A stretch of 56,397 bases of DNA from Promethearchaeia archaeon (GTDB taxonomy: Archaea; Asgardarchaeota; Lokiarchaeia; Sigyniarchaeales; SOKP01): NCBI GenBank assembly GCA_029856045.1, contig JAHQWG010000008.1, forward strand, positions 1 through 56,397, in the 5' to 3' direction. Position 1 is the stretch's first letter. The number at the start of each line of letters is the position of its first letter. Of this stretch, positions 7,294 through 35,578 are shown piece by piece. Below the pieces are notes generated by a model. It was not told the origin of the DNA, did not search any database, and was given only the letters and a program-made list of their open reading frames with translations. A program made the translations under genes and the position numbers.

Positions 7294-8508
7294 ATGGTTA
7301 AAGCTGACGTATATTTTTTTAGTGCAACTGCTCTAAAATCTAAAGATTCCTTATCAAAAGTTAAAGGTCCTTTAAGTCTTGAATATCTTGGATTCAATAA
7401 GGAGGTTAAAAAAAATGATAGAGTTTGCATTAAAACACATTTTGGAGCATTGGAAAATACGCGGTATTTAAGACCCACTTACATGCGGTTCCTTTGTGAT
7501 TATGTAAAAGAGTTTGGTGCTAGTCCATCAGTTGCAGAAAGCTGTGGATGGGGATTACCGGGTGCTGGAGGTGAATATGGAGGAAGAGCTAGTGAGAAAG
7601 AATATTTAGGGGTTGCATTGAAACACGGCTTTACGAAAGAAACAATGGGAGCTCCCATTTTAATGCTAGATGGGCCAATAGGAATAGATTATGAAAGCCA
7701 AAAAATTAATGGTAAATGGTTTAATGAAGTATTGGTCGCTGGAAGATTAAGAGAATTTGACTTGCTTATATCCGCTGCTCATTTTAAAGGACATTCAGGT
7801 ACAGGTTTTGGCGGAGCGTTAAAAAATATAGGCATTGGGTGTGTATCGAAAGGTGGAAAAGTTCAAGCTCACACTGGAAAAAATCTCACAAGAAATTTTG
7901 AAAAATGTGTAAGTGAATGCACTGATTGTATTGATATCTGCCCTACTAATTCTTTAAGAAAAGATACAAATAATAAAATCATATATAACAAAGATACATG
8001 CAAAAATTGTTATATGTGTGTCTCTGCATGTAATGAGGAAGTCTTCAAAAGAGAGAAAATAGCTCGTGAACAATTTATCGAACAAATGATTGATAACGCT
8101 CTTGGCGTAGTTGAATTTTTTAATCAAGAAAAAATATTTTATATTAATTACGCTATTGACATAACTCACCAATGTGATTGTTCGGGCGGTTCTGACGTAA
8201 ATTTCGTCCAAGACGTCGGAATTCTCGCTAGTAGAGATCCGGTAGCAGTTGATATGGCATGTGTTGATCTCACTCATAAATCACCTGCGTTACCTAATTC
8301 ATGCTTAGATGGATTAGAGATTCCAGAGAAAAACGGTATTCATGAATGGTTTTCTTATATTCCAAGGTTTAACTATGAAAACAATGAAACAGATTTGAAT
8401 AGAAACGCAGAATATCAAGATTTTTGGAAAATTCAATTAAATGCGGCTGAAAAATTAGGGCTTGGAACAAAAAAATATAACTTAATTGAAATAACTGAAT
8501 TTGAATAA
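7294..8508 (+). CDS. DUF362-family Fe-S protein with a 2x[4Fe-4S] ferredoxin insert
   Basis: IKTHFG, HFKGH...GGALKN.GIG, CTDCIDICP/CKNCYMCVSAC, CDC, SRDPVAVD. Confidence 0.85.
   Translation: MVKADVYFFSATALKSKDSLSKVKGPLSLEYLGFNKEVKKNDRVCIKTHFGALENTRYLRPTYMRFLCDYVKEFGASPSVAESCGWGLPGAGGEYGGRASEKEYLGVALKHGFTKETMGAPILMLDGPIGIDYESQKINGKWFNEVLVAGRLREFDLLISAAHFKGHSGTGFGGALKNIGIGCVSKGGKVQAHTGKNLTRNFEKCVSECTDCIDICPTNSLRKDTNNKIIYNKDTCKNCYMCVSACNEEVFKREKIAREQFIEQMIDNALGVVEFFNQEKIFYINYAIDITHQCDCSGGSDVNFVQDVGILASRDPVAVDMACVDLTHKSPALPNSCLDGLEIPEKNGIHEWFSYIPRFNYENNETDLNRNAEYQDFWKIQLNAAEKLGLGTKKYNLIEITEFE
8461..8498 (+). repeat. Direct repeat A, copy 1 (3' end of the DUF362 gene)
   Basis: 36/38 identical to 11654-11691. 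Confidence 0.85.
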
Positions 8509-8538
8509 AAAGATTAAATAACCAGAATAAATTAGATA

Positions 8539-10710
8539 ATGGAAAATAAAAATAATACAGAAATTAGTACTAAAGACGGAAAATGGTCGCAATGGTGGCG
8601 AATTCCACGTTTTATTGTTTATATATTTGGAATCATTACCATTTATTGGTATTTCTGGTGTATTATTGGTTTAGTAATCGGAATCATTTATTTTATTTTT
8701 TTGAATGATCCAGCTTGGAAGCGTAATGGAATTGTATTAAGTCTATATATTGGCTTTATAACTACACTTATTTATCTAAATTTGCATGGAATTGGAATTT
8801 GGTTTCCCCCTCTTAATTTGGTCCTGTGGTATGGAACAGGATTTATTATAACCTATTTAATAATAATAATTGCATGGATTTCGCGTAAAAAAAGGTTCCT
8901 AAGTATTAGGTTTACACAATGGATTTCTCATAAATCAGAGAAGATCTCAAATAAAATGAAAATTTTGATTGATTTTTTCTTAATATTAATTCCCATTACA
9001 TCGTGGATTTTAATAAGTATTGATTTTGAAGTAATGCTTGATAATAACCCACATATTCTTTGGATACATGCTCCCTCTAAAGTGAAAGTTGGCGAAAATT
9101 TTAACATAACAATTGAGGCATGGGATCAATTTGAACGTTTAAGCGCGGTTTATAACGGAGAAGTTAAGTTTTCTATTGAGTCCTACGATCTCTCCAATTA
9201 TAATTCCATCAATTCTGTAGATGCTTTATTGCCCAATGAATATATTTTTACGGGTCAATTGCTGGGCTCGGACATTGCTTACGAAATTCTCGATGGTAAG
9301 GATAATGGCAGACATGTATTCGAAATCTCAATTAATACTCTAGGTATTCATTATATTCGTGTAGAAGATAGTATCACTCAAAATACATTCTATAGTAATC
9401 CCATTATTGTGGATAATTTTCCTGACTCGGAAAGAATGCTTTACTGGGGTGATCTACATACACATTCTTACTTATCTGATGGAAGTGGAACACCCGAGCA
9501 TAATTTTTATTATGCAAGATATATCGCCTGTATTGATTATATGGCTCTTACAGATCATGGAGAAATTTTATTATTTTCACCTGGATCCTTGGACATAATT
9601 GAATTTGCTACAAATAATGCTAATGAACCGAATATATTTGTAACCTTTCAAGGAATTGAGTGGACAAACACTCGAACGGGTCATTATACATGCATTTTCA
9701 GTGGGGATCAACTATTAAAAAATCCAATTTTATCATATTTAACAGTACCATCTACTAATGGATTATGGGATGCTCTTGACAATTTTACATCTAGTACAGG
9801 TTCTAACGCATTAGCGCTTCCTCATCACACCACTAAGAGATCATACCCACAAGACTGGACATATATCAACCCAAAATATGTTAAAATTGCTGAAGTCTGT
9901 TCTGTTCATGGTGATTTTTTATATGAGCAACGAGATGAGCTTAATTATCGTGGAGCTATCGATCCCCCTCCAATATACACACCTGGTTCTTCTATTATAG
10001 ACGCTTTAAAAATGGGAAAAAAATTGACCCTTTATGCGGCAAGTGATGTCCACGATGGTCATCCTGGACATAGCTTATGTCATACGAGGGCTTTTATTGG
10101 TCATCAACGACCATTTTCTACATGGCATACGCGCAATGAGCATCCATATCCTGGAGGATTAACAGCCGTTTACGCTGATAATCTTACAAGAGGGGGTATT
10201 TTTGATGGTTTGGAAAATCAAAGAATTTTTGCAAACTCTGATCATGGTCGCCCCATATTACACTTTACAATTAATGGAATTGATGTAGGAGATAACTCAA
10301 CAGTTTTTGTGGCAAATAAAAATTCTAGTAGGGAAATTAATCTATTTTTAGCTCAAGATGGCGCTCCAGTAGCTTTAAAATCACAAGCAGCACAAACAAC
10401 CTCCAATTGGTTGCCTAATTGGAATGCAACAATTGAAATCATTAAAAACGGGGAATTATGGTATAAAGAAAGAGTAAATTCTCCCATCCAAAAAATCTCA
10501 AAAAATGATGACGAACCGATTGTTGGAGCTAATTATGAAGATAATTGCTTAAAAATCGGGGATAACTATTATATTAATACTTATAGTGATAATCCTATTA
10601 ATCCCACTACACTCAATACTGGAGGTTGTGACTTTTATTTGATTAGAGTTGTTGGTGAAAATGGAAGAACCTCCTATGTGGGGCCAATTTGGGTGGAATC
10701 TGTAAATTAA
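8539..10710 (+). CDS. Membrane-anchored PHP-like metallohydrolase (DUF3604/CehA-McbA-like)
   Basis: About four N-terminal TM segments; WGDLHTHS, TDH, PHH and SDVH metal motifs. Confidence 0.8.
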   Translation: MENKNNTEISTKDGKWSQWWRIPRFIVYIFGIITIYWYFWCIIGLVIGIIYFIFLNDPAWKRNGIVLSLYIGFITTLIYLNLHGIGIWFPPLNLVLWYGTGFIITYLIIIIAWISRKKRFLSIRFTQWISHKSEKISNKMKILIDFFLILIPITSWILISIDFEVMLDNNPHILWIHAPSKVKVGENFNITIEAWDQFERLSAVYNGEVKFSIESYDLSNYNSINSVDALLPNEYIFTGQLLGSDIAYEILDGKDNGRHVFEISINTLGIHYIRVEDSITQNTFYSNPIIVDNFPDSERMLYWGDLHTHSYLSDGSGTPEHNFYYARYIACIDYMALTDHGEILLFSPGSLDIIEFATNNANEPNIFVTFQGIEWTNTRTGHYTCIFSGDQLLKNPILSYLTVPSTNGLWDALDNFTSSTGSNALALPHHTTKRSYPQDWTYINPKYVKIAEVCSVHGDFLYEQRDELNYRGAIDPPPIYTPGSSIIDALKMGKKLTLYAASDVHDGHPGHSLCHTRAFIGHQRPFSTWHTRNEHPYPGGLTAVYADNLTRGGIFDGLENQRIFANSDHGRPILHFTINGIDVGDNSTVFVANKNSSREINLFLAQDGAPVALKSQAAQTTSNWLPNWNATIEIIKNGELWYKERVNSPIQKISKNDDEPIVGANYEDNCLKIGDNYYINTYSDNPINPTTLNTGGCDFYLIRVVGENGRTSYVGPIWVESVN

Positions 10711-10715
10711 ATAAA

Positions 10716-11423
10716 TCATCCAAACCGTTCTTGAACAATAATATACTCAAAACCTAAGGTTATAAATTCAATTAAAACACTGATGATTAATGTCGCTAAA
10801 AGTCCAATTAATACCATTTCGAGTCCAAATGTTAACCAATGTCTTTCAGAATACAAACTTCTCATAACTCCTACGATAAATAAACCACCAAATGAAAAAA
10901 TGGTTGCTATAATAAAAGACCAGAATTGCAGAGGAATAATAAAAGGAGCTAGTGGTAAAAGACTTCCAACAATAAAGGATAAAGTCATAAATAGTGCATT
11001 TATTGTTGGTTCTCTAATATTTAATTCTTTAGAATTTATATTTCGTATTTTATTTATAATTTTTGGGTGTTTTTTTAATAATTTATTTAGATCATCTAAT
11101 TCTTCATTATAAAAACTACCTTCTTCTTTTAAAGATTTTAAAAGATCTTCAGAACTGAAAAAATCTTTAGTCTTAAAATTTTTAGAATAACTTCTTAGAC
11201 ATTGATTCTTGGTTTTTATCGAAATATATGCTCCAAAACCCATTGAAATCGAACCAGAGATCATCTCAGCTATTAAAGCAATTAATAACAGAAATGGATA
11301 ATCGTAAACTAACATAATTAACGCAATCATTAAAACATAAGTGGAAATCAATCCATCTTGAAAGCCAAAAATAAAATCTTTAAACCTCTCTCCTCGATCT
11401 GAATAAATAAATTCTCTAATCAT
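10716..11423 (-). CDS. VIT1/CCC1 family iron/manganese transporter
   Basis: IFGFQDGLIS, SMGFGAYIS, PLAPF. Confidence 0.88.
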   Translation of the reverse strand: MIREFIYSDRGERFKDFIFGFQDGLISTYVLMIALIMLVYDYPFLLLIALIAEMISGSISMGFGAYISIKTKNQCLRSYSKNFKTKDFFSSEDLLKSLKEEGSFYNEELDDLNKLLKKHPKIINKIRNINSKELNIREPTINALFMTLSFIVGSLLPLAPFIIPLQFWSFIIATIFSFGGLFIVGVMRSLYSERHWLTFGLEMVLIGLLATLIISVLIEFITLGFEYIIVQERFG

Positions 11424-11473
11424 AATTTTTTCACACTTATCTATTTCTTAAAGTAATTAATATTTTTTTTTTA

Positions 11474-11510
11474 ATTTCCAATTCAGAGTAAAATATATTC
11501 TATTGGAAAT
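11474..11510. promoter_or_regulatory. Inverted repeat ATTTCCAAT-N19-ATTGGAAAT upstream of the VIT1 gene
   Basis: Perfect 9-bp arms about 50 bp upstream of the start codon. Confidence 0.35.
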
Positions 11511-11653
11511 ATTAAGTAAAAAGTTCAATTCTTGCGATTTTTAAATTATCATCTAAAAATTATTCTACATAATTTAATTATTAAAAAAATTTAAAGACAA
11601 TCCAAAATATCTCTATTTTTTAATGCAATAATTCATCAATGTGATTGTTGGGA

Positions 11654-11691
11654 CTTGGAACAAAAAAATATTACTTAATTGAAATAAATGA
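11654..11691 (+). repeat. Direct repeat A, copy 2 (orphan DUF362 3' end, LGTKKYYLIEIND*)
   Basis: Matches 8461-8498. Confidence 0.85.
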
Positions 11692-11784
11692 TTGAAGTGG
11701 TTTTTATATATATTTTTAAAAAGTTATTTATTACTTTTAGTTATCCTAAAATTATTATAAAAAATTAAAAGGTGTTAAAATTTT

Positions 11785-12315
11785 ATGGCAGAAGCTAAGA
11801 ATTGGGTTTTTTTATTTCCTATAATTGCAGCTATAGTATTATTAATTTCTCTATTATATCCAATAATGCATATCGCTATAAATATTCCTGCAATCCCGCT
11901 GTTAATAGAAGGTGATTTATTACCATTTGGAGGGGGAATCGTTGATGAACTAGAGTCATATGTAGCAATCTTACCTGAGGCGGCGAGCCTTCAAACTACA
12001 TTTTATTGGCTAGGAATAGTTTTTATGGTTTTTTTCATTCTTGGAGCATTATTTTTGATAATATCAGCTATTAGAGTTGTATCTGGGAATATAGAACTTA
12101 AGAAAGCAAGGAAAAAATGGTTGAGAAATGGTCTTTCTTATATTATAACTGAACTAATATTTTTTTATGGTATGACATTTATAGTTTCATATGCTTTAGA
12201 ACAAATGGGTCTAGGAATTGAAATAATTTTTACAATGAGACTGGGAATGATTCTAATAATTGTTGCTGGAGGAATATTGATTTTTGCATATATTTGTGCA
12301 AAAATTGCAGGATAA
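11785..12315 (+). CDS. Hypothetical four-TM membrane protein
   Basis: Four hydrophobic segments; AGGTG upstream. Confidence 0.75.
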   Translation: MAEAKNWVFLFPIIAAIVLLISLLYPIMHIAINIPAIPLLIEGDLLPFGGGIVDELESYVAILPEAASLQTTFYWLGIVFMVFFILGALFLIISAIRVVSGNIELKKARKKWLRNGLSYIITELIFFYGMTFIVSYALEQMGLGIEIIFTMRLGMILIIVAGGILIFAYICAKIAG

Positions 12316-12409
12316 TTAATTAAATTGGCTCCTTTCTTTTAGGCCAAAGTATTACCTATAAAAGAATACATTATTTAAGCATTAAAATTAAGAAATTGAA
12401 GGAATATAA

Positions 12410-13219
12410 ATGCCTTTATTTAAATTTGAAGATGTTGAAATAAATTATGTTAAGAGAGGTAGAGGAGAACCTCTCGTGTTGATTCAAGGGCTTGGGCAAA
12501 AAATCTCAAGTTGGACCCTTCAAATGCCATATTTTCGACGGAAGATGATGATCATAGCATTAGATAACAGAGGTGTTGGAGATAGTTCAAGACCAAATTA
12601 TCCTTATACAATGGATATGTTTGTGGATGAGACTAAAGGTCTTTTGGATTTTTTAGATATTCAGGATAAGATTCATCTAATGGGGATAAGCATGGGGGGA
12701 ATGATTGCTCAAAATTTTGCCTTAAAATATCCTGAAACGGTTAAAACCTTAATATTATTAGCAACATCAGCATATTTGGACCCTGATCCTTACCTTGAAC
12801 AAACCAAATTTATTGTTGAAAAATTAGATTTAGATGCAGGATTTCAAAAAAAGCTTGATTCAATGTTTTCAAAATCTTTCATAAAAGAATTAAAAGAAGA
12901 CAAAATATTATTTGATGCTCTTAAAAACAAAATGATGTTAGAAAATCCTACACGGTTGCAAGATTATATTAATCGAGCCGCCGCCATATCAGGACACGAT
13001 ACACGTGAGTCATTGCATAAAATAATGCAACCCACATTAATCATGGCAGGGACAGAAGATCAAATAATCCCTTTTGAGCACTCGAAATTCTTACATGAAA
13101 AAATTCCAAATTCAATATTAAAAGAATTTCCAAGCTTTGGACACGGAAGTTTATTAGTTGAAGATGCAGAAAAAATTAATGATTTAATTTGGAATTTCAT
13201 AGAAAAGCATCTTAATTAA
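12410..13219 (+). CDS. Alpha/beta hydrolase (enol-lactonase/esterase-like)
   Basis: DNRGVG, nucleophile elbow GISMGG, GTED, GH. Confidence 0.9.
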   Translation: MPLFKFEDVEINYVKRGRGEPLVLIQGLGQKISSWTLQMPYFRRKMMIIALDNRGVGDSSRPNYPYTMDMFVDETKGLLDFLDIQDKIHLMGISMGGMIAQNFALKYPETVKTLILLATSAYLDPDPYLEQTKFIVEKLDLDAGFQKKLDSMFSKSFIKELKEDKILFDALKNKMMLENPTRLQDYINRAAAISGHDTRESLHKIMQPTLIMAGTEDQIIPFEHSKFLHEKIPNSILKEFPSFGHGSLLVEDAEKINDLIWNFIEKHLN

Positions 13220-13287
13220 TTTTAAAATTATTTTACGTGAATTTATATACTTTCCCTAAAAGCATATAAGAAAATGCATAGTAGAGA

Positions 13288-13941: not shown

Positions 13942-14015
13942 GAGCTTGCATTAATTCTTTTTTGTATATTTTATCTTAATCTGTGGTTTCATAAAAGTAA
14001 AAAAAAAAAGTTTAA

Positions 14016-14300: not shown

Positions 14301-14390
14301 GACATATCATCTTTCTATAAAATTTATATAAATAAAATATATACTTTTAAATTTTTAAATAATTAAACTATAATTTAGGAAAAAAACAAA

Positions 14391-16133
14391 TTGAGAGTAG
14401 AAATGAGTGAAAAAAGTGAAAATAGTAAGGTTCCTAAAACTGGTGGAGATTTATTAATTGAATGTCTTCTTCAGGAAAATGTGAAATATTTGTTTGGAAT
14501 ACCTGGTGGGCAACTTTTGCCTATGTATGATGCAGTATTTAGATGGGGTAAGGAGAAAGGAATTCAAACAATACTTGTAAGACATGAACAAGCAGCAGCT
14601 CATGCAGCAGATGCGTATGCACGTGTTACTGGAGAATTGGGTGTATGTTTTGGAACCGTGGGACCAGGTGTAACCGATATGGTTCCTGGTGTTGGAGCTG
14701 CTTGGTCTGATAATACACCTCTTCTAGTAATTGGTGCTCAAGTAAAACGAGTATTAGACGGTAAATCTACACTTCAGGGCGATCTTGATCAAATAACCTT
14801 AATGAAACCTATTACCAAAGCTCAATTAAGAATTCAAAATCCTTTAGAGATTCCTAAAATCATTCCAAGAGCGATAAGAATTGCGTTTTCAGGTCAAATG
14901 GGACCTGTTTATGTGGATATTCGTGAAGAGGCTTTTTATGGGCAAGTTCCTTCAGATGCAAAATATGAGATATTATCCCCCGATAAATATCGACCTCAAT
15001 TAGGTGTTGCTGGTGATTCTAAAGCAATAGAGGAGGCTATAAAACTTATAAAAAATGCAAAAAAGCCTTTAATAATTTGTGGAGGAGAAGTTAATTGTTA
15101 TAATGCGTCAGAAGAATTAAAAAAATTATCAGAAAAGTATGCAATTCCTGCAGCTACATCTGGTACGGGTATTGGGGGAATTTCAAGTGATTCTCCAACT
15201 CATTTAGGTGCTGGTGCAATTTCTGATGCTGTTATGAATGCTGCAAATAATGCGGATGTTGTAATTTCAGTTGGATGTAAATGGGATTATACAATGGGGC
15301 TAGGACTTCCACCATTATGGCCTAAAAATCAAGAATTAATACAGATTAATATTGATCCTTCTGAAATTGGAAAAAATAGACCCGTAGATGTTGGAATTGT
15401 GGGAAATTGTAAGACTATTTTAAATCAATTACTTGAAAAATTAGAAGGAGAAATATCAGAAAATTGTTTTTCAGAGTGGAATATTGACCAACAAGAAAAA
15501 AAAGAAGATGCATTAAAAAGAAGATTAAAAAAATTTAATTCAGAAAACGTTCCTATACTTCCTGAGAGGTTTATCAAAGAAATATTTGAATTTTTTCCAT
15601 CAAACTCAATTATAATCATGGATAGTGGGAATACTTCTTTTTATGCAGCCGAACAGATGGATTTATATAAACCACGCCCTCCAAGAAGTACATTAGCTTC
15701 AGTTGGTATGGGACATCTTGGTGCTGGTATAGGTTTTGCGCTGGGTGCTAAGTTGGCATATCCAGATAGGCAGACTGTAGTCATGCAAGGTGATGGAAGC
15801 TTTTTATTTAATGTTCAAGAGCTTGATACTGCAATGCGATACAATTTGCCCTTTATTGTAGTTATTGCTAACGATAACGCTTGGGGTATGATTAAATCTG
15901 GACAATCAATGTTTTCAGGAAAACGATATCTTAATGTGGATATACCAAATATAGATTATGCAGCAATTGCTAAGGGATTCGGTTGTTACGCTGAGACCGT
16001 CGTTAAACCAGAAGAGATTAAACCTGCCCTACAGAGGGCTGTCAATTCGGGAAAAGCTTCCGTCATAAATGTAAAAATTAAATGGGACACACCAAAAGCC
16101 ACTAAAACATTGTTTAATTTAGGAATAATTTAA
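14391..16133 (+). CDS. Thiamine-diphosphate-dependent enzyme, acetolactate synthase-like family (ATG at 14403 likely)
   Basis: FGIPGG, RHEQAAAHAADAYAR, GDGSF...NDNAWG ThDP motif. Confidence 0.92.
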   Translation: MRVEMSEKSENSKVPKTGGDLLIECLLQENVKYLFGIPGGQLLPMYDAVFRWGKEKGIQTILVRHEQAAAHAADAYARVTGELGVCFGTVGPGVTDMVPGVGAAWSDNTPLLVIGAQVKRVLDGKSTLQGDLDQITLMKPITKAQLRIQNPLEIPKIIPRAIRIAFSGQMGPVYVDIREEAFYGQVPSDAKYEILSPDKYRPQLGVAGDSKAIEEAIKLIKNAKKPLIICGGEVNCYNASEELKKLSEKYAIPAATSGTGIGGISSDSPTHLGAGAISDAVMNAANNADVVISVGCKWDYTMGLGLPPLWPKNQELIQINIDPSEIGKNRPVDVGIVGNCKTILNQLLEKLEGEISENCFSEWNIDQQEKKEDALKRRLKKFNSENVPILPERFIKEIFEFFPSNSIIIMDSGNTSFYAAEQMDLYKPRPPRSTLASVGMGHLGAGIGFALGAKLAYPDRQTVVMQGDGSFLFNVQELDTAMRYNLPFIVVIANDNAWGMIKSGQSMFSGKRYLNVDIPNIDYAAIAKGFGCYAETVVKPEEIKPALQRAVNSGKASVINVKIKWDTPKATKTLFNLGII

Positions 16134-16236
16134 TTCAAAGAAAAAAAAGGAGTTTAAATATCAACTTCTAGAGATTGCAATAGGTTTATTTAATTGAATC
16201 TAAGGGGTTTAGAATGAATAAATGGAGTATAATTGC
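15665..16236 (+). repeat. Direct repeat B, copy 1 (3' part of the ThDP enzyme gene plus about 100 bp downstream)
   Basis: Matches 17869-18440 at offset 2204, with 12 substitutions counted by eye. Confidence 0.97.
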
Positions 16237-16245
16237 AATCTATTT

Positions 16246-16268
16246 CCAGACTCCAGACTCCAGACTCT
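16246..16268 (+). repeat. Heptamer tandem repeat (CCAGACT)x3
   Basis: ccagactccagactccagactc about 10 bp after the end of repeat B copy 1. Confidence 0.8.
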
Positions 16269-16404
16269 AAAATTTTTAAAGACATTAAAATAATTTTGAT
16301 GTTATTAAAATTTAAAAATGACCACTCTTTTATTTTAGTAATTAAAATTACCTACAAAGATGTCATATATCCACAGCAATTAAAAAAAAAGAGATGATAA
16401 AAAT

Positions 16405-17454
16405 ATGATTTTGCAATTTGACACAGCTTGGGCAATCCCTTGGTATACGACTATGGTGATTGTTAACGTCGTGGGCCTGGTGTATTGTGCAATTGTTTAC
16501 AAACGATCCCTGATTCCAAGGGATGGAAAGGATTTAACATATCGGAAATGGATGCGAATTATGGGGGTAATCTTTACGTTAGTTTCTGCATATCGAGCGA
16601 TTGGTGTATGGTCTTTACCATATACTTTCCGACTACCGAACACGGTAGCGGAAGTTTCATTCGCTGGGTTATTTGCATATGCGATGTTACGTTTTAATAC
16701 TTATTTGCATGCTACCGACGACACACGTGCTAATAAATTCAAGTCATTCATAACAAAGACTCCCTATATCCTAGTAGGATGTTTAGTTCTATCACAATTC
16801 ATTGACACATGGGGAGGGGTCACCCATTTTGCATTAAGGGGTGTATTCGTGGAGACATTATGGGGGATTGGGTTCCTGTCAGTACTCCCACTTGCTATTA
16901 TACAACTGCGCCGTGTTCTCTCGATAAAAGATAAGGAAGCAAAAGAACGGTTACGAATAATGAAGTATTCTGCGATAATAATTGCAGCTTGGTGCGTGAT
17001 TTATTGTATGTACAGGTGGATCTTTACTTTACCGGGAATGTGGGCCGGGGCGTTATATATATTAGAAACGGGGTTACCTCCTCTTGAAACTGGCTTACAA
17101 GCGATAATTGATGCCCTTGGAATTATAACGCGAACATCGCTAGAGTACAGAGATTGGGGTTTTGGTTTTCTAATATGGCACTCTGCCTACTTTAGCATCT
17201 GTACTTGGATTTCAATATTCTTAATGAAAGCGCCACGACCCCGGGAAATTTCTGGGAAACATAACGCTAAGCTAACGCTAATAACGCTAGCGCTAATAAC
17301 GATAGCGCTAATAGCGCTAATAACGATAATTGGCTTACCAGCTGACATTGATGAGAAAATTATTCTTTTCGTTTTGGGAGGCTTATTTCTCGGACCCATT
17401 GCCTACATTTTCGTTTTAGAAATCAAGCGTGTCAAGTTAAAGACTATAGAATAA
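16405..17454 (+). CDS. Uncharacterised polytopic membrane protein with visibly atypical, GC-richer codons
   Basis: About nine hydrophobic segments; frequent GCG/ACG/CGG codons unlike the neighbours. Confidence 0.8.
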   Translation: MILQFDTAWAIPWYTTMVIVNVVGLVYCAIVYKRSLIPRDGKDLTYRKWMRIMGVIFTLVSAYRAIGVWSLPYTFRLPNTVAEVSFAGLFAYAMLRFNTYLHATDDTRANKFKSFITKTPYILVGCLVLSQFIDTWGGVTHFALRGVFVETLWGIGFLSVLPLAIIQLRRVLSIKDKEAKERLRIMKYSAIIIAAWCVIYCMYRWIFTLPGMWAGALYILETGLPPLETGLQAIIDALGIITRTSLEYRDWGFGFLIWHSAYFSICTWISIFLMKAPRPREISGKHNAKLTLITLALITIALIALITIIGLPADIDEKIILFVLGGLFLGPIAYIFVLEIKRVKLKTIE

Positions 17455-17646
17455 ATTTTAATTTTATTTTTTTTCGTTTTCCATATTTTTTGCCAATTTT
17501 TGATTCAAGACTGAGTTTATCACTCAATCCACCAAAGAACGGTCCTAAAAAGGCGTATAGTACAAGCATTGAGGAATAAACACTCCCCACAAAAAAAGGT
17601 GGAAGTCCCAATATACTTACTGCATATTTTAAGATAAATCCTGAAA
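17444..17646 (-). pseudogene. Fragment of an MFS (glycoside-pentoside-hexuronide-like) transporter N-terminus
   Basis: YAVSILGLPP...FLGPFFGGLSDK...KYGKRK resembles motif A of MFS transporters (compare GIISDNTRSKFGRRR in 21196-22518); truncated on both sides. Confidence 0.6.
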
Positions 17647-17870
17647 TTGAACTACACCTTCCTAAAGGAAGGTGATTCCTTCCTTGAGAAAGACGTTTCC
17701 TCATTCCTCGACAACTGCCGAAAGATATTTCTAAGAATTTCTTTAGGTCTTACATTATCTCCAAAGGCGTGACTTCCCGTCGCCCCAACGGTAGTATTTC
17801 CATTATTTCTAATGATCGTGATCTTCATTTCTTCTTTTAAAATTCTCATTCCCTCTTTTCTTAGATTAAT
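17647..17870 (-). mobile_element. tnpB: IS200/IS605-family remnant: tnpB 3' tail plus right end (omega/reRNA scaffold region)
   Basis: INLRKEG...TVGATGSHAFGD...ESPSFRKV* resembles TnpB C-termini after the DRDxNAA motif; terminal inverted repeat CACCTTCCT-TT-AGGAAGGTG followed by TAGTTCAA. Confidence 0.8.
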
Positions 17871-18337
17871 ATAAACCACGCCCTCCAAGAAGTACATTAG
17901 CTTCAGTTGGTATGGGACATCTTGGTGCTGGTATAGGTTTTGCGCTGGGTGCTAAGTTGGCATATCTAGATAGGCAGACTGTAGTCATGCAAGGTAATGG
18001 AAGCTTTTTATTTAATGTTCAAGAGCTTGATACTGCAATGCGATACAACTTGCCCTTTATTGTAGTTATTGCTAACGATAACGCTTGGGGTATGATTAAA
18101 TCTGGACAATCAATGTTTTCAGGAAAACGATATCTTAATGTGGATATACCAAATATAGATTATGCAGCAATTGCTAAGGGATTCGGTTGTTACGCTGAGA
18201 CCGTCGTTAAACCAGAAGAGATTAAACCTACCCTACAGAGGGCTGTCAATTCGGGAAAAACTTCCGTTATAAATGTAAAAATTAAATGGGACACACCAAA
18301 AGCCACGAAAACATTATTTAATCTAGGAATAATTTAA
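17869..18337 (+). pseudogene. 5'-truncated copy of the ThDP enzyme gene
   Basis: Only the last ~155 codons are present; ThDP motif GDG changed to GNG. Confidence 0.9.
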
Positions 18338-18440
18338 TTCAAAGAAAAAAAAGGAGTTTAAATATCAACTTCTAGAGATTGCAATAGGTTTATTTAATTG
18401 AACCTAAGGGGTTTAGAATGAATAAAAAGAGTATAATTGC
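17869..18440 (+). repeat. Direct repeat B, copy 2
   Basis: About 98% identical to 15665-16236. Confidence 0.97.
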
Positions 18441-18528: not shown

Positions 18529-18578
18529 GTAATTCAAGCTAATATACATTTTTTTTTCTTTTTTTTTAAAGAGGTTAA

Positions 18579-19970
<1,392 letters not shown>

Positions 19971-20091: not shown

Positions 20092-21165
20092 ATGATATTA
20101 GGTCAAAAAGAAAAACTGTTTTTAGATTTAATGAGAAATTTTATCGAAGCAATAAATGGTATAGAGGCTATTTGGATATATGATCGAGAAGGTCTTTTGA
20201 TTAGCAAATATGCTCGAGCAGAATTATCTAAAGATGGATTAAATGAATATGAGAGAGAAGAAATTTATGGTGCCTTCGCAAGTATATTCAATCCTTTGTT
20301 AAAAAAAATTAATTCTGAATATAAAATTGGAGAATTGGGTTCAATCACATTTGAAACTCCAGATCATCATATAGTTTTTCTAGAAGCAGGTTCAAAAGCT
20401 GTAGTTCTCATCATAACAATGTATGATTTGGAAATAAGTTCAATCTTACCATATTGTTATTTATTTGTTGAAAAAGTTGTCCAGATAATAGAAGAGAGTT
20501 TTGATTCAAGATATAACACATTAATGATACCAAAATTAATGATTGGTAATTCTTTTGATAATACTTTAAAAACTTCCTTTGTAAAAACGGAAGATAATGA
20601 AATATATATAGGTAGAAAAAAAGAAGTACAATTTTTTAAGCTTATTATTCTCGGTGATGCTGCAGTTGGAAAGACAAGTATGGTTTCTCGATTTGTAAAA
20701 GGTAAGTTCTCAACAGATTATAGACCAACGCTAGGGATCTCCATAACAACTATGCGATTTAACATTCAAGGTTTTGAAGATTCTCAAGTGAGGTTTTTAA
20801 TTTTTGATTTAGCTGGTCAAGAATTTTTTAAACGTGTTAGACATATGTATTTATCAGGAGCACAAGCAGTTTTTATAGTATATGATATAACTAGAAGAGA
20901 AACTTTTGAGGGTGCAGATTATTGGTTTGAAGATGCTAAAAAAGAATTGGGAGATATGCCTTTTGTATTAATTGGAAATAAAATCGACTTAGAAAATGAA
21001 AGGCAAATATCAACCGAAGAAGGAATGGAAAAAGCGAAGAAATTTAGATGCACATTCGTGGAGACTTCTGTAAAGGCAAATGTAAATATTGAAGATACAT
21101 TTAAAATTTTAGGGATTGGGATGTTTTTTAGAAAAATTGAAGATTTTGATGGTCTTGAATCTTAA
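20092..21165 (+). CDS. Roadblock/longin-like domain fused to a Rab-like small GTPase
   Basis: N-terminal WIYDREGLLIS roadblock-like fold; GDAAVGKTS, PTLG, DLAGQ, GNKID, ETSVK. Confidence 0.88.
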   Translation: MILGQKEKLFLDLMRNFIEAINGIEAIWIYDREGLLISKYARAELSKDGLNEYEREEIYGAFASIFNPLLKKINSEYKIGELGSITFETPDHHIVFLEAGSKAVVLIITMYDLEISSILPYCYLFVEKVVQIIEESFDSRYNTLMIPKLMIGNSFDNTLKTSFVKTEDNEIYIGRKKEVQFFKLIILGDAAVGKTSMVSRFVKGKFSTDYRPTLGISITTMRFNIQGFEDSQVRFLIFDLAGQEFFKRVRHMYLSGAQAVFIVYDITRRETFEGADYWFEDAKKELGDMPFVLIGNKIDLENERQISTEEGMEKAKKFRCTFVETSVKANVNIEDTFKILGIGMFFRKIEDFDGLES

Positions 21166-26606: not shown

Positions 26607-26748
26607 GAACTTTAAGTCAAATTAGTTAATTTTTTTTAAAAATTCAAAATTTTTACTAACTATTATTTAATAAACGGAATTTTTTTAAATTTTCATTATT
26701 TCTCTTTATTCGTAAATTTAAATAAATATTTTTTAAGGAAATAAAAAT

Positions 26749-29253: not shown

Positions 29254-30187
29254 TAATAAATGGATATCAATAAAAATCATAAAAAAAGAGTTGATAAGTA
29301 AAATGGGTAAAGAAAAAGGATTAATAAAATGGTTTTCCGAATTTTCCGAGGAAGCAATTACTTTTACAGAGCCAGAAATTATTGTAAAATTAGTTTCAAC
29401 GATTGATCCCCGTGGTTGGCCTCATATATCTCTTATTTCTTGTAATCGAGCAAAAAATAAAAATCAAGTAGTTTGGGGACAATTTACTGAAGGATTAAGC
29501 AAGAAGTATGTGGAAGAGAATCCAAAACAAGGAATATTTTGGATGCCAACAAAGATGCCATTTAAAATTCTTCAAGCAAAAGTAAAGCTGAATTATACGA
29601 AAACAGAGGGAGAAGACATAGAATATTTTAATAAATTAGATCTTATGCGATATAATGCATATCTTAGTGTCTGGAAAGTTTTTTATAATGATGTTATAGC
29701 GGTTTCTCCAATTAGGAAATTATCTTTAATAGGAATTATTAAAGGAATTTTATTGGATATGATTGGAAAAGGAGCGGCAAAAACAAAACTGTCTGAAAAA
29801 CGTTTAAATATTCTTGGGTATAAATTGTTTAAAGGTCCTATAAATCCTAAATTTATTTCTTATATTGACCCTTCCGATGGCTATCCGATTATTATTCCGT
29901 GTATTCAATTACAGGCTGCTGATCATAATAGGCTTATCTTTCCACTTACGGTTTTAAAAGAAGATTTGGAAAAAATTCCGACTAATTCGAAAATCGCTGT
30001 TTTTGGAATGAATACGGATTTAGTTAGTCAATTGGTTAATGGGACGTTTATAGGGTTTAAAAAATTTAGGGCAATAAAGTTTGGCATAGTTGAAATTGAA
30101 GAGATTTATAATAGTTGTCCGCCTTTAGTCGGAAAAATTTATCCAGAAATTGAGACACGACCAAAAGTTACAAATTTTCATTTATAA
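29228..30187 (+). CDS. Tandem pyridoxamine-5'-phosphate-oxidase-like (split barrel) protein; true start probably about 29303
   Basis: Two repeats, STIDPRGWPHIS and SYIDPSDGYPII. Confidence 0.7.
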   Translation: MLGSLTKCNNKWISIKIIKKELISKMGKEKGLIKWFSEFSEEAITFTEPEIIVKLVSTIDPRGWPHISLISCNRAKNKNQVVWGQFTEGLSKKYVEENPKQGIFWMPTKMPFKILQAKVKLNYTKTEGEDIEYFNKLDLMRYNAYLSVWKVFYNDVIAVSPIRKLSLIGIIKGILLDMIGKGAAKTKLSEKRLNILGYKLFKGPINPKFISYIDPSDGYPIIIPCIQLQAADHNRLIFPLTVLKEDLEKIPTNSKIAVFGMNTDLVSQLVNGTFIGFKKFRAIKFGIVEIEEIYNSCPPLVGKIYPEIETRPKVTNFHL

Positions 30188-30317
30188 TTAACTTTTTTTT
30201 TCCTTATCGATATTTTAATGTATTTTTTTTATAATATTTTTCTTAAGTCAAAAATTTTAAGGAACTATAATCTTTAATCCATTTGTTTAAATTATAATTT
30301 CTTAAACGATATTTGCA

Positions 30318-30401
30318 TTCATCTAAATCTACTTCCTCTATTCTTGGAGCAATAAAATAAGTCATTGTTGTCTTTCCTAATTCTTTAAATTTGATATCAA
30401 A
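30318..30401 (-). pseudogene. Orphan 3' fragment resembling the PCNA C-terminus
   Basis: FDIKFKELGKTTMTYFIAPRIEEVDLDE resembles the PCNA Y(Y/F)LAP(R/K)IEE terminus; no upstream coding part. Confidence 0.6.
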
Positions 30402-30503
30402 GTTATTTCTATCAAAAATAATTAACAAAAAAAGAAATAAATATAAGTTCAAAAATAGAATAATTTTTAAAATTAAATATTTTTATTTAAATAATTTTTA
30501 GGG

Positions 30504-30875
30504 ATGAAATTGGGGAAAAAATCACTCACTAATGAATTAATGAATAAAATTGAGGTCTATTTTAAGGGCATGCACTACTTATCCAATTGTGGGAGCCCGT
30601 TTGACGAATCGAAATTTGAAAAATTAGATCGCATACTTGTAAAGGCAGATGCCGCTTTTGGACCGGCTAAAAGAGCAGAAATGATGGCTGAAACAAAGAA
30701 AATTCTCCCTGTTAAAATGGGTGACGGATGGAGAGACGGAAGAGACAGTTTGAGATTAAATCTTATAAATGGGTTAAATCAAGGCTTTAAAGCCTTCAAT
30801 AAAGCTCTAATGGAAACCTCTCCGGATAAAGATACAGCCAAAAAAATGTTGAAAATCCTGAACAAATATAAATAA
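30504..30875 (+). CDS. Hypothetical protein
   Basis: 123-aa ORF with coding-like, GC-richer composition. Confidence 0.65.
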   Translation: MKLGKKSLTNELMNKIEVYFKGMHYLSNCGSPFDESKFEKLDRILVKADAAFGPAKRAEMMAETKKILPVKMGDGWRDGRDSLRLNLINGLNQGFKAFNKALMETSPDKDTAKKMLKILNKYK

Positions 30876-31193
30876 AGAAGTAATTTCTTGTGTTCTGTAT
30901 TATGGTGAGGTTCAATTACCATTTTTTGCAAATATGACATGAATCTTAGACCTAAAAAATTACTAATATATCATGACACAATCGATTTTTAGTAAAAATG
31001 AGAATATTTTAAGGAATTAATTTTTGTAAGTGAAATTAAAATAACTTAATAGTATTAGTTCTCAATTTATTTTAAGAAAATTTTGAGGAAATCGATTACA
31101 AATGCTATCTATTTAAATATTAAGTATTTTTAATTAATATTGTTCATTTAAATATAATTTAAAGAAGGTAAAAATAAAGAGAGAAATTTAAAA

Positions 31194-31556
31194 ATGTCAA
31201 GTGATCAACTCGCTTTTTTAGAAAAAATGAAGAAATTAGCAGAAGAAAATGAGGAATTTAAAGAAGAATTAGAGGATCTTGATGAAATTATCGCTCAAAA
31301 TGTAATTACAGATGTTAATTATAAGTTCTGGATTAAATTTGGAGGAGGAAAATTTGAGTATGGCGAAGGCGAGATAGATAATCCTTCATTTACAATGTCT
31401 TGCACTGCAGCTATTATGACCGGCATGGGCACGGGAGAAGTTGAAGGTACTTCAGCCTATATGTCAGGTGATTTAGCTATAGAAGGAGATTTACAAGGTG
31501 CAATAGCCTATGGCGAAATTACTGGAATCGCCAGAGACATTTTAGAAGAAGAATAA
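31194..31556 (+). CDS. SCP2 sterol/lipid-binding domain protein
   Basis: AYMSGDLAIEGDL C-terminal motif; 120 aa, acidic. Confidence 0.88.
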   Translation: MSSDQLAFLEKMKKLAEENEEFKEELEDLDEIIAQNVITDVNYKFWIKFGGGKFEYGEGEIDNPSFTMSCTAAIMTGMGTGEVEGTSAYMSGDLAIEGDLQGAIAYGEITGIARDILEEE

Positions 31557-31685
31557 AATAATTCTAAAAAATAATTGATTTATTCCATTTTTTTTATTTT
31601 TTATTATTTTTTTTATAATCATTAAACAAACTTTATTTTTATAGCATTTTTCATTATTTATCCATTATAAAACAGTTTTCTTAAA

Positions 31686-32663
31686 ATGATAAATTTGATA
31701 AATTCTAAACACGGATTAATATTTGAAATTCAGAGAATGTCTACAGAGGATGGTCCTGGAATCAGGACAACAATATTTTTTAAAGGCTGCCCCTTAAAAT
31801 GTGTATGGTGTCATAATCCTGAATCGATCTCAAAGGAGCCCCAACTTCAATGGTTTAAAAATAAATGTATTGGCTGTAATACTTGTATTGAAACTTGTCA
31901 GCAACAAGCCTTATCTTTTGGTAAAGATGGATTAAAAATAGATCGAGATAAATGTATCTCGTGTGGAAATTGTGCCGATGAGTGTCCTAGTACTGCATTA
32001 AATATGATTGGTAAAAAATGGGATCGTAATGATTTATTTCATGAGATAGAGAAGGATAAAGTTTATTATACAACATCTAAAGGTGGTATTACAGTTTCAG
32101 GAGGCGAGCCTACATTACAATCGAAATTTATAGAAGATTTTCTAAAGAAATGTAAAGAAAATAGCATCAAAGCTGCACTAGATACTTGCGGATATGCATC
32201 AAAGGAAATTTACCAAAAACTATTACCGTATGTAGATTTAGTCCTTTTTGACATCAAAGAGATTAATCCCAGAAAACATAAGGAATTTACCGGCGTTTCT
32301 AATGAGAGAATTTTAGAAAATGCTATTTGGATTTTAGATTATATAGAAAAGCATGATAAAAAAATGTGGATAAGAACGCCTTTAATTCCGAATTTTACTG
32401 CTACTGAAGAAAATATCAAAGGAATAGGAAATTTCATTGTAAATGATTTAGGGAATAAAATTGAACGTTGGGATCTTTTAGCCTTCAATTCGCTTTGCTC
32501 GGGAAAATATTCCCGATTGGGGATATCGTGGGTATTAAAGGATGAACCGTTATTAACTGATGAAAAAATGGAATATTTTTATAAAATTGCTAAAGAAATC
32601 GGTGTTATTAATGTTCAATGGTCAGGATTAACTAAAAAAATTGATTCTGAAAATAACAACTGA
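31686..32663 (+). CDS. Glycyl-radical enzyme activating enzyme (radical SAM with ferredoxin insert)
   Basis: DGPGIRTTIFFKGCPLKCVWCHNPE; two CxxCxxCxxxC motifs; SGGEP. Confidence 0.95.
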   Translation: MINLINSKHGLIFEIQRMSTEDGPGIRTTIFFKGCPLKCVWCHNPESISKEPQLQWFKNKCIGCNTCIETCQQQALSFGKDGLKIDRDKCISCGNCADECPSTALNMIGKKWDRNDLFHEIEKDKVYYTTSKGGITVSGGEPTLQSKFIEDFLKKCKENSIKAALDTCGYASKEIYQKLLPYVDLVLFDIKEINPRKHKEFTGVSNERILENAIWILDYIEKHDKKMWIRTPLIPNFTATEENIKGIGNFIVNDLGNKIERWDLLAFNSLCSGKYSRLGISWVLKDEPLLTDEKMEYFYKIAKEIGVINVQWSGLTKKIDSENNN

Positions 32664-32774
32664 ATTACTTAACAAATTTTTTCCTATCTATTTCTTCTAG
32701 CTAAATAAATATTTTTTAACCTAGCTATTTATTAATAATATAAGTTTAAGGTCAGAAATAAAATGTGATTTTTA

Positions 32775-33911
32775 TTGGATAAAATAATAATAGTCCGCTG
32801 GGACACTCAACTTGGTCCCCAGTTCATTATACAATATCCACCAGAAAAGGAAATGCCTAAGAAAGATTTATTTGTAAAAATATGGGCAAAATATGAATTA
32901 CAAAAAGAAAAATCAATCATTGTGCTTACCACAGAAGATATAGATAGGGATATAGGTAAAAAAAATATAAATTATTTGACAGTTACTCAACAATATGAAG
33001 GAGAATTATATTTTTTTATTCTTGAGTTAGAAAGATTACAAAAAGACCAAAACTTTGAAGATTATTCTGAGATATTGGGGTCTATTAGCAAGAACCTTAT
33101 TGAACTAATTCATTCTGATAAATTTATGAGAGCACTATCCGAAGGATATAATCAAATTAAGGGTTTTGTTAAATTAGAAAAAGAACAAAACATAATTAAC
33201 ATATTTAAAGATAAAATAAAAACTCATATTTTAAAAGTTCTTGAAAAGGGAGTGATTTCAAAAGTTGAACTAATAAATAAATTAAAGGAAAATTATGGTT
33301 TTTCTGGAGAAAATATTGATTTATTATTATCTTCATTTTTAAAGGAAGGGTTAATTCTTAAAAAAGATTTACCTGGAATTAAAGAATGTATATTTCTGGT
33401 TAAAGACTTAGTATGTATAAGAATTCCACCAAATTTTTCAACTTTAAATCTGGGTCACAAGAAAAAAGAAGGAAAAGAGCTTAAAGTAAGTTCCAAGAAA
33501 TTCTATAAAGATTATATTAATAAATTAAAAGAATTTTTCACTAATTTTGATGTTATAAGTGAAATTAAAGATAATACATTATATGCACTTTTCTTTAATG
33601 AAAATATTTACAATCTGATAAAAAAATTAAGAGAAACAACTATTCCAGTTGAAAAAGCATTAATAGTATTAGAAGATAAACAAGAATTATTTAATGATCT
33701 TTTGGATAAAACGATTATTTTTGAAAGAAAAGGCATGATATATTTATTTTCTGATATAAGGTTTATTAGGTTCCTTCCGATTTTTATTCTTAAAAATCTC
33801 AAGGAGCGTTATGATAACATGGAAATCACTTCAGATCAATATGTTACTCATATTGAAATTCTTTTAAATGAGTTAAATAAAGAAAAAAAAGAAATTTATA
33901 CTATTATTTAA
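32775..33911 (+). CDS. Longin/uDENN-like N-terminal domain protein with winged-helix-like segments
   Basis: IIVRWDTQLGPQFIIQYP resembles the (F/W)DxxxGP start of uDENN/NPRL2-like longins. Confidence 0.55.
   Translation: MDKIIIVRWDTQLGPQFIIQYPPEKEMPKKDLFVKIWAKYELQKEKSIIVLTTEDIDRDIGKKNINYLTVTQQYEGELYFFILELERLQKDQNFEDYSEILGSISKNLIELIHSDKFMRALSEGYNQIKGFVKLEKEQNIINIFKDKIKTHILKVLEKGVISKVELINKLKENYGFSGENIDLLLSSFLKEGLILKKDLPGIKECIFLVKDLVCIRIPPNFSTLNLGHKKKEGKELKVSSKKFYKDYINKLKEFFTNFDVISEIKDNTLYALFFNENIYNLIKKLRETTIPVEKALIVLEDKQELFNDLLDKTIIFERKGMIYLFSDIRFIRFLPIFILKNLKERYDNMEITSDQYVTHIEILLNELNKEKKEIYTII
33837..33911 (+). repeat. Direct repeat C, copy 1 (last 25 codons of 32775-33911)
   Basis: 70/75 identical to 35486-35560. 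Confidence 0.95.
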
Positions 33912-34163
33912 AATTGAAAATTTAACAATTTTATCTAGAAAAAAAGTTTATTCTAAGATTTATATTTTAGTTGTTTGCTATACTCCTATAATATGAATTG
34001 CACGATCTTTGTTCTAATGTTATGTATACGCTATATATTTTGACGGTCATATTTAAATAAAAAATTACAGATTAAAAAGATGTAAATATTTATATTTATA
34101 GCTGTTTTTAGATTAGAACTAGATATAAATAATATGATAAAAAATAAGACAAAAGTGAATTAA

Positions 34164-35435
34164 ATGAAAAATCAAAAAATCTATCTTTTTTTATCAATCT
34201 TGATTATTCTAAATTTTTGCTTCTATCTTCAAGATGCGTCTGCCAGCACCTTAATTTCAGGAGAGTGGCACAAAACTTGGGGTGAGCACCTAAGAGATCA
34301 ATTTAGGGCGGTAGCAATTGACTCTTCGGGAAATATTATCCTCGCAGGTTTCTCGGAATATATTTCAGATCAGGAACACAGTTTTTCTTATATGCGCATA
34401 CTTAAATGCGATAATGCAGGAAACCAAATATGGAGCCAGACATGGAATAATTCTCAATATGATTATTGTACCGGAATGGTTATAGATTCTTCAGACAATA
34501 TCTATCTTGGCGGCAGTAGCAGCAGACCTTCGGGACTCGCTGATATCTGTTTGGTGAAATATGATTCCGACGGTAATTACCAATGGAATCGTACATGGGG
34601 CGGAAAGGGGATCGATTTTGGTCGGGCAATTGCCTCAGACTCCTTAGGTAATTTGTATATTGCGGGAGGATCAGGAGAGTACCATGAATCTACGCATTTA
34701 TGCCTTATGAAATTTGACAGTTCGGGAGAATCACTATGGAACTTTACTTGGGATGGGGGATTCGAATCTGAGTGCTGGGCAATGATAATTGACACGTCAG
34801 ATAACATCTTTCTTGGAGGAGTCTATTATAAAGGTCCTGCTTCAATGGGATTAGATATGTGTTATTTTAAGATTAACAGTGCGGGGGTATTGCAATGGAA
34901 TAATACTTGGGGTGGAAACCAGAGCGATTTTATCAACGTAATAGCTTTAGATAGTTTGGGAAATATTTATCTTGGGGGTCATACAGAGAGTTTCAATTCA
35001 AGAGTCCATGATCATGATATGTGTTGCATTAAACTTAATGACGTGGGAGTTCAACAATGGAATATTACAATAGATAGTATAGGGCAAGAACTCTGTAGTA
35101 ATATTTTTACAGACTCTTCGGATAATATCTACTTTATTGAGTTTATAAAATATCACAATCTTTTTTTATTAAAATATAATAGTTCGGGGGTTTTATTATC
35201 AAACTATTCATTGGAGGGAAGTTATCTTGATTATTGTTATGCTACAGCAATGGATTCTGCAGAAAATATTTATCTTGCGGGAGAAGGCGGGAAGGACATG
35301 GTGCTGCTTAAGATTTCGCTGAGGACTATAACTTTCATTCCGGGATACGATTTATTTCTACTGATTGGTGTAGCCCTGACCGTTTCGCTGGTTCTCTATA
35401 AAAAGCATTATAAATCGCTGAAAAAGATTATTTAA
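34164..35435 (+). CDS. Secreted beta-propeller (SBBP-like repeat) surface protein with an IPGY-TM-basic C-terminal anchor
   Basis: Signal peptide; about seven W..TWGG...DS.GNIY..G repeats; IPGYDLFLLIG...KKHYK; GC-richer than the flanks. Confidence 0.88.
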   Translation: MKNQKIYLFLSILIILNFCFYLQDASASTLISGEWHKTWGEHLRDQFRAVAIDSSGNIILAGFSEYISDQEHSFSYMRILKCDNAGNQIWSQTWNNSQYDYCTGMVIDSSDNIYLGGSSSRPSGLADICLVKYDSDGNYQWNRTWGGKGIDFGRAIASDSLGNLYIAGGSGEYHESTHLCLMKFDSSGESLWNFTWDGGFESECWAMIIDTSDNIFLGGVYYKGPASMGLDMCYFKINSAGVLQWNNTWGGNQSDFINVIALDSLGNIYLGGHTESFNSRVHDHDMCCIKLNDVGVQQWNITIDSIGQELCSNIFTDSSDNIYFIEFIKYHNLFLLKYNSSGVLLSNYSLEGSYLDYCYATAMDSAENIYLAGEGGKDMVLLKISLRTITFIPGYDLFLLIGVALTVSLVLYKKHYKSLKKII

Positions 35436-35485
35436 ACTTTTTTTCTTTCTTTTTTGCTTATTCAGTATGATTTTGAAGAAAAAAG

Positions 35486-35560
35486 CAATATGTTAATCAT
35501 ATTGAAATTCTTCTAAAGGAATTAAATAAAGAAAAAAAAGAAATTTATACTATTATCTAA
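35486..35560 (+). repeat. Direct repeat C, copy 2 (orphan QYVNHIEILLKELNKEKKEIYTII*)
   Basis: Matches 33837-33911. Confidence 0.95.
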
Positions 35561-35578
35561 CAAGAAAATTTAAGTAAA

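Follow-up and report, generated by a model that had tools for sequence, protein, structure and literature searches.

Gene cassettes without recombinase genes, closed by a second copy of the host gene's end, in a Lokiarchaeia genome

The genome of a Promethearchaeia archaeon (GTDB lineage Archaea; Asgardarchaeota; Lokiarchaeia; Sigyniarchaeales; SOKP01; GenBank assembly GCA_029856045.1) harbours blocks of ordinary genes that have been inserted beside an intact host gene and are closed, on their far side, by a second copy of one end of that gene, in the window its 3' end. Three such cassettes lie in the window analysed here, the stretch of 56,397 nt at positions 1 to 56,397 of contig JAHQWG010000008.1 (contig C8), and some 29 are found in the 3.3 Mb of the genome as a whole. 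Insertion scars of this type are real and frequent in this organism, and the model proposed for them in an earlier note on the window, made from the sequence alone, is partly right. The reading preferred here, with moderate confidence, is that the cassettes arose by recombinase-free insertion, anchored by homology and carried out by host recombination, with duplication of a long target.

The source genome (G000) is a metagenome bin of 55 contigs, 3.34 Mb in length and with 29% GC. It was compared with four relatives of the same genus (G001-G004), which share ~88-93% DNA identity with it and of which G004 is a 10-contig genome.

Three insertions closed by duplicated gene ends

Self-comparison of the window by blastn returned exactly three non-trivial matches. 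All are direct, and the first copy in each is the 3' end of an intact open reading frame (ORF) on the + strand. The repeat measures 38 nt in cassette (i) (8461-8498/11654-11691, 94.7% identity; 44 nt at 91% with wider edges), 577 nt in (ii) (15660-16236/17864-18440, 97.7%) and 75 nt in (iii) (33837-33911/35486-35560, 93.3%; 95 nt at 85% with wider edges), with E-values of 3.5e-8, 0 and 2e-24, respectively, against the whole 3.34-Mb genome. Copy 1 (c1) is the working gene end and copy 2 (c2) a stump; in each cassette the ancestral context is continued by copy 1 with the left flank and by copy 2 with the right flank. The inserts are 1.6-3.2 kb long, all below 20 kb. The features are as follows, with gene family labels taken from a Pfam profile scan.

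Cassette (i)
7294-8508, + strand: host gene, DUF362 with 4Fe-4S motifs, intact (Pfam; mosaic tests)
8455-8498, + strand: copy 1 of the repeat, which stops 10 nt short of the stop codon; the final codons, EFE*, have no homology to the stump tail
8499-11620, no single strand: cargo, a DUF3604-type protein at 8539-10710 (+) and VIT1 at 10716-11423 (-) (Pfam)
11621-11691, + strand: stump in two pieces, 11621-11652 resembling 8154-8185 and 11648-11691 resembling 8455-8498

Cassette (ii)
14391-16133, + strand: host gene, a thiamine diphosphate (ThDP)-dependent enzyme, intact (Pfam); congener orthologues are 92-95% identical
15660-16236, + strand: copy 1 of the repeat, comprising the last 474 nt of the ThDP gene, a spacer and, from the small ORF downstream, the first ~23 nt, after which that ORF is cut off
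16237-17863, no single strand: patchwork cargo, a 349-aa ORF without Pfam family at 16405-17454 and a weak MFS-like fragment at 17444-17704 (-)
17864-18440, + strand: copy 2 of the repeat, a dead ThDP 3' fragment (GDG to GNG, P to L, stop at codon 2)

Cassette (iii)
32775-33911, + strand: host gene, a 378-aa ORF without Pfam family, a recombination mosaic relative to the congeners
33837-33931, + strand: copy 1 of the repeat, the last 75 nt of the gene and ~20 nt of weaker similarity
33932-35485, + strand: cargo, an SBBP beta-propeller protein at 34164-35435 (Pfam)
35486-35580, + strand: stump, contiguous with the old neighbour, a PK_C-like gene at 35579-36172 (-), as at the empty sites

That these are insertions is established by empty sites in relatives, a comparison that the earlier note had proposed and that yields single-copy sites for all three cassettes in one to four congeners. 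In G002 the DUF362 gene is followed directly by the ORF found at 11785-12315 of the window, with the cargo of (i) absent. The ThDP gene of G004, G001 and G002 runs directly into the small ORF and purA, so that both copies of repeat (ii) map to one stretch; in the window it is copy 2 that leads on to the intact small ORF and to purA (18579-19970), as at the empty sites. The host gene of (iii) directly abuts the PK_C-like gene, again without the cargo, in 4/4 relatives (G001-G004). The junctions of (ii), for which the earlier note had asked for reads across the joints, are seen again in three independent JGI metagenome contigs (samples 3300008516, 3300008517 and 3300028837), each of which matches positions 15882-18229 of the window at 100% identity and runs through both joints. 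The terminal overlaps (58-119 nt) in these contigs fit either a circle or a loop in the assembly graph and were not used as evidence.

The layout of gene, cargo and second 3' end, which the earlier note had described three times on the + strand, is thus borne out by the self-comparison, and the Pfam scans of the window cargos likewise uphold its statement that they encode no integrase. Its gene labels fared unevenly. The DUF3604-type protein, VIT1, the 349-aa ORF and the SBBP beta-propeller were recovered, but the label 'Longin-like' was not recovered by Pfam, the MFS fragment of cargo (ii) is a weak sub-threshold match only, and the 'membrane protein' of that cargo is read here as the ORF without Pfam family at 16405-17454. 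A TnpB fragment proposed in the same cargo was found neither by Pfam nor by a genome TnpB search. The rest of cargo (ii), 133 nt at the left joint and ~220 nt elsewhere, is of unknown origin; the former stretch contains a run of (CCAGACT)x3 at 16245-16265, which may be filler made at the joint.

Cassettes across the genome

A genome-wide scan for repeat pairs within 15 kb of each other shows the same geometry on a larger scale, with 265 direct pairs in G000 against 1 inverted. After ORFs had been called and fragments embedded in full-length paralogues set aside, orphan 3' fragments numbered 22 on the downstream side of their gene and 0 on the upstream side; orphan 5' fragments numbered 7 upstream and 4 downstream, and 2 fragments were internal. 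The ~29 cassettes identified in this way support the suggestion that such insertion is a general route of gene gain in this archaeon. Their cargos span 0.65-8.3 kb. In the 35 of 69 cargo ORFs of at least 60 aa that were scanned, no integrase or transposase was found; the types recovered include hydrolases, methyltransferases, ABC transporters, a glycyl-radical enzyme with its activase, a B12-binding protein with URO-D, ATP-grasp enzymes, a glycosyltransferase, a HEPN protein and a PD-(D/E)XK protein. A search for a shared core or terminal motif at the junctions of the 29 cassettes gave nothing beyond A-rich low complexity, in agreement with the earlier note, which had seen no common core in the three repeats of the window. 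The genome has one TnpB (PF07282 search) and a single match to the tyrosine recombinases (PF00589), at 1445-1963 of the window. As this match lies inside a stretch that is syntenic with G004, the protein is probably a chromosomal Xer-type enzyme and not an island integrase.

Within a 40-kb stretch syntenic with G004 there are five blocks specific to G000, three of which carry stumps. Two blocks that are absent in G004, 36257-37999 (VIT1 and rubrerythrin) and 30216-31005 (two small ORFs), have no long flanking duplication. Three further cassettes, on C51, on C29 and at C49:79-87 kb, lie in regions without simple congener synteny and have no readable empty site.

Other loci show related arrangements. 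In G004, a 3.6-kb block on contig C1 (L011 12434-16050), immediately upstream of the DUF362 gene, holds decayed fragments of the DUF362 5' region (L011 14512-14689). This is a scar in mirror image, with the 5' stump lying upstream, at the gene that hosts (i). On C49 of G000 (32000-41500, L055) two convergent genes that are adjacent in G001 and G003 have cargo on one side in G004, on the other side in G002 and on both sides in G000, where the stumps stand back to back. At C27:514799-519046 (L054) insertions are stacked at one convergent gene junction, with repeat pairs of 301 nt and 105 nt, each ~98% identical, and a ~57-nt core that occurs three times. Elsewhere in the window, the gene at 20092-21165 encodes a Ras-family GTPase with a weak sub-threshold N-terminal match to Roadblock/LC7, a typical Asgard signature protein that accords with the Lokiarchaeia identity of the genome.

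Working ends and stumps as different alleles

The two copies of a repeat are, as judged from their substitutions, largely different alleles. Over 19 ungapped pairs of working ends and stumps (3.7 kb), the pooled ratio of non-synonymous to synonymous change (dN/dS) is 0.19 (228 differences are synonymous and 198 non-synonymous, and there are 2 stops). Duplication in place followed by neutral decay of the stump predicts a ratio of ~0.55 and is rejected (p = 5e-19). The claim of the earlier note that the copies diverged as alleles under selection is sustained by this result and by two of the window cassettes: in (i) the tail of c1 resembles G004 and that of c2 resembles G002, and in (iii) 4/5 differences between the copies fall at sites that vary among the congeners. 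The enrichment in synonymous changes that it had reported is modest in the three cassettes (8 synonymous versus 8 non-synonymous, binomial p = 0.013) and becomes strong only on pooling across the genome.

The working end of (i), EFE* followed by AAAAGA, is as in G004 (ELE*), and the tail of its stump, ND*, matches the empty site of G002 (TD*) together with the right flank. The stump has an internal deletion of ~270 nt. The DUF362 gene itself (7294-8508) is chimeric, with a G002-like middle and a G004-like last ~370 nt (maximum chi-square 18.6, p = 4e-4), and the switch in ancestry falls between 8142 and 8143, some 10 nt from the left edge of the stump (8154). A chimeric host gene is here combined with a displaced 3' fragment that starts near the chimera junction. 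The proposal that incoming DNA had replaced the host gene's 3' end fits this cassette; no such switch can be resolved in (ii) or (iii).

In (ii) the four differences in 15660-16038 are all derived in copy 2, the GDG to GNG change included, copy 1 is derived in one coding change and in three changes of the truncated small ORF, and a cluster of four synonymous differences occupies 16076-16125, where the sites concerned are polymorphic within the genus. All of the polarisable changes (8/8) lie on the left part of c2 plus the right part of c1, a pattern that fits a single crossover near 16040-16068 with an incoming copy that was already damaged. In the host gene of (iii), identity to the congeners is 97-99% at the centre (33121-33370) and 82-90% at both ends, a profile that points to frequent recombination between species.

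On C49 the stump of a gene designated B is 95.2% identical to the working allele of G001, as against 91.0% to the working copy of G000 itself. Orthologous stumps that share defects are present in G000 and G004. On C27 a stump, B', is 17% diverged from its gene, B, with a low dN/dS, and B differs by 1-3% among G000, G001 and G004.

Models of insertion

In the preferred reading, incoming DNA from a related lineage would carry a short copy of the resident gene's end at one of its edges; the shared gene-end stretch is 38-577 nt in the window and, in a relative, up to ~830 nt. The cell would cross over within this stretch, or just upstream of it, by its own homologous recombination. The other edge would be sealed by non-homologous joining, either earlier, when the fragment circularised, so that a single crossover produced an 'insertion-duplication', or during the entry of a linear fragment, by homology-facilitated illegitimate recombination; the non-homologous joint or joints would be made by end joining or template switching. 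The upstream copy would then complete a working gene, and the downstream copy would become a dead stump still adjoining the old neighbours. What we infer are the steps of crossover and end joining, whether the DNA was circular or linear, and its route into the cell; what is observed are the duplications, the insertions relative to empty sites, the allelic differences, the lack of a core motif and of recombinase genes in the cargos scanned, the chimeric host gene in (i) and the geometry across the genome.

This scheme would account for several features at once. A crossover in the shared stretch, together with the sealing of the other edge, would leave the stretch on both sides of the block. The 3' stumps would lie downstream and the 5' stumps upstream because only insertions that leave the gene whole survive, and the working end and the stump would be different alleles because the incoming stretch came from another lineage. 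Host recombination with DNA of a related lineage would thus yield allelic copies, a chimeric DUF362 gene and cassettes that need no recombinase of their own.

A number of observations weigh against it. The earlier note had supposed that the incoming DNA brought its downstream neighbours with it; this was not upheld, as no searched genome has any of the cargos beside the host gene as a native neighbour. The best relatives of the DUF3604 protein of cargo (i) are 61-65% identical and occur in other genera and other contexts, without an adjoining DUF362 gene or VIT1 and without flanking repeats. The best matches to cargo (iii), in the two congener loci compared and in G000 itself, reach 30-42% aa identity, and the G001 locus with a homologue of this cargo (C206) has no paralogue of the host gene. 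Orthologues of the cargo (ii) gene, 92-96% identical, stand at other loci in the congeners: in G004 118 kb away, between 84-nt direct repeats of their own, and in G001 in a third context with a different left flank. In G002 and G001 the gene is followed by a 94-nt stump of itself. A 4.65-kb operon cassette of a PALP enzyme and an amino-acid ABC transporter tells the same story. In G000 it lies between ~340-nt repeats at C27:521135-525792, where G004 is empty; in G004 the block, 91% identical, occupies another locus on contig C7 (L078 4410-9643), between 128-nt repeats, where G000 is empty (C36:152272-152396). At its left end the block stops on the very same base at the two loci, and in a wider search the operon cassette was found as a unit within the genus only. 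The occurrence of the operon and of cargo (ii) at other loci, each with its own repeats, implies that some primary events joined cargo to new sites without homology.

The gene ends themselves also raise difficulties. The working genes of (i) and of the C49 cassette end in new, unrelated C-terminal tails, and the ancestry switch in gene B of C49 is only suggestive (p = 0.07). The repeats of (ii) and of several other cassettes span two gene ends, so that both junctions are illegitimate with respect to the normal gene order. The low pooled dN/dS comes mainly from a few long pairs, the short pairs being near neutral, and the changes in (ii), a young cassette at 97.7% identity, nearly fit duplication in place with decay as well.

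Some of these points favour the main rival, possible though rather unlikely in our estimate, in which insertion is wholly illegitimate. Staggered joints, made between two chromosome copies or by template switching at replication, would duplicate a long target, the two copies would start out identical, and later homologous exchange would overwrite the working gene, with the stump left behind as a relic of the earlier allele. Two-ended repeats speak for such an event, as does the presence of one cargo at several loci with a separate target duplication at each. In (ii) both joints fall within ORFs, and the copies, at 97.7% identity, have their damage in non-functional parts; new C-terminal tails are found on working genes, and the host genes are pervasive recombination mosaics. 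However, this model requires an extra recombination event per cassette to produce allelic copies; later replacement at random does not predict that the DUF362 switch should fall within ~10 nt of the stump edge, and the working copy of (ii), next to the cargo, has one non-synonymous and four clustered synonymous differences.

A more far-reaching proposal, which is doubtful at present, treats the repeat-cargo-repeat units as self-propagating mobile cassettes that need no enzyme. Recombination between the two copies would free a circle of stump and cargo, which could re-enter the empty sites of relatives by one crossover, and whole operons would reach new loci by a form of joining in which tens to hundreds of target bases are duplicated. 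Whether such a circle carries the repeat of its old site to a new one was examined by comparing spacers and flanks, and neither the 338-nt spacer beside the G004:C7 cassette nor the unexplained flanks of cargo (ii) have a match in the other locus. If true, the proposal would make such cassettes a main channel of gene flow among Asgard archaea.

Selfish, nuclease-driven replacement of gene ends, as in WHO elements or the mobile ORFs of fungal mitochondria, would cut the empty allele and have repair copy the cargo together with a resistant gene end. Cassette (i) has the same anatomy, with its chimeric host gene, displaced 3' fragment and junction at the fragment edge, and one other G000 cassette encodes a protein with a PD-(D/E)XK domain. 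Nevertheless, Pfam recognises no nuclease in the three window cargos, orthologues of the DUF3604 protein occur in nine other genomes without flanking repeats, and the host genes and cargos are all different, so that this explanation appears improbable. Still less probable are decayed site-specific integrative elements bounded by attL and attR, with an integrase that was lost or acts in trans. They would reconstitute the 3' end of the target gene, as many gene-end-targeting integrases do, but the sole PF00589 match stands in the stretch syntenic with G004, the repeats vary from 38 to 577 nt without a common core, and the cargos are 1.6-3.2 kb of ordinary genes. A strain-chimeric assembly, which might be suspected in a metagenome bin of 55 contigs, is scarcely credible given that both junctions of (ii) are reproduced in three other assemblies, that orthologous stumps share defects in G000 and G004 and that similar scars occur in the 10-contig G004.

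Relation to known systems

Aloposons and the published integrated elements of Asgard archaea, which are based on integrases or tRNA genes, were considered and set aside as unrelated. Closer in anatomy are the WHO homing elements at FBA1 in Torulaspora and Lachancea (Coughlan et al. 2020, PMC7282813), whose loci combine a chimeric host gene, cargo and displaced host 3' fragments, as in (i). WHO elements, however, encode the initiating endonuclease and have one target gene, whereas the window cargos contain no nuclease gene and the targets are many and unrelated.

Homology-facilitated illegitimate recombination and the C-terminal displacement seen in rhs and type VI secretion system (T6SS) genes (de Vries and Wackernagel 2002; Jackson 2009; Kirchberger 2017, PMC5361080) share with the cassettes an anchor in a conserved gene, new downstream DNA and an old 3' end orphaned downstream. 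The rhs and T6SS events swap a variable toxin tip, whereas here a conserved gene end is duplicated without toxin-immunity logic; and, in contrast to homology-facilitated illegitimate recombination, none of the relatives searched has the cargo contiguous with the anchor.

Single-crossover integration of a circle, of the Campbell or insertion-duplication type, is used in bacterial and yeast genetics and is known for plasmids. It predicts the order repeat-cargo-repeat, hybrid copies and a gene that is intact only if the homology includes the gene end. What would distinguish the present cassettes is a natural and frequent version of the process, operating without a replicon or an integrase.

The nearest precedent is insertion with long target duplication (Nobusato et al. 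2000, cited in Furuta, Abe and Kobayashi 2010, PMC2853133), a class described there for bacterial restriction-modification genes, with no archaeal case having passed the screen and the mechanism left unresolved. The blocks are said to be shorter than 20 kb, present or absent between relatives and free of mobile-element genes, with direct duplications of more than 30 bp that are variable in length (46-423 bp) and often overlap the 3' end of a gene. The three cassettes of the window likewise have empty sites, a direct duplication of more than 30 bp that aligns to a single copy, no mobile-element gene and a length below 20 kb. They differ in that they carry no restriction-modification genes, that the cargos are ordinary metabolic, transport and surface genes, that ~29 cases occur in 3.3 Mb, and that the two copies are often different alleles.

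The cassettes illustrate how genes are gained and moved in an Asgard archaeon that has hardly any integrases or transposases, probably through its own recombination and end-joining. Three of the five G000-specific blocks in the 40-kb syntenic stretch carry such scars, each a record of the previous allele, so that the scars offer a means to count, date and trace gene imports in the closest lineage to eukaryotes. Processes of this class have been described before in bacteria; in this genome the process is very common.

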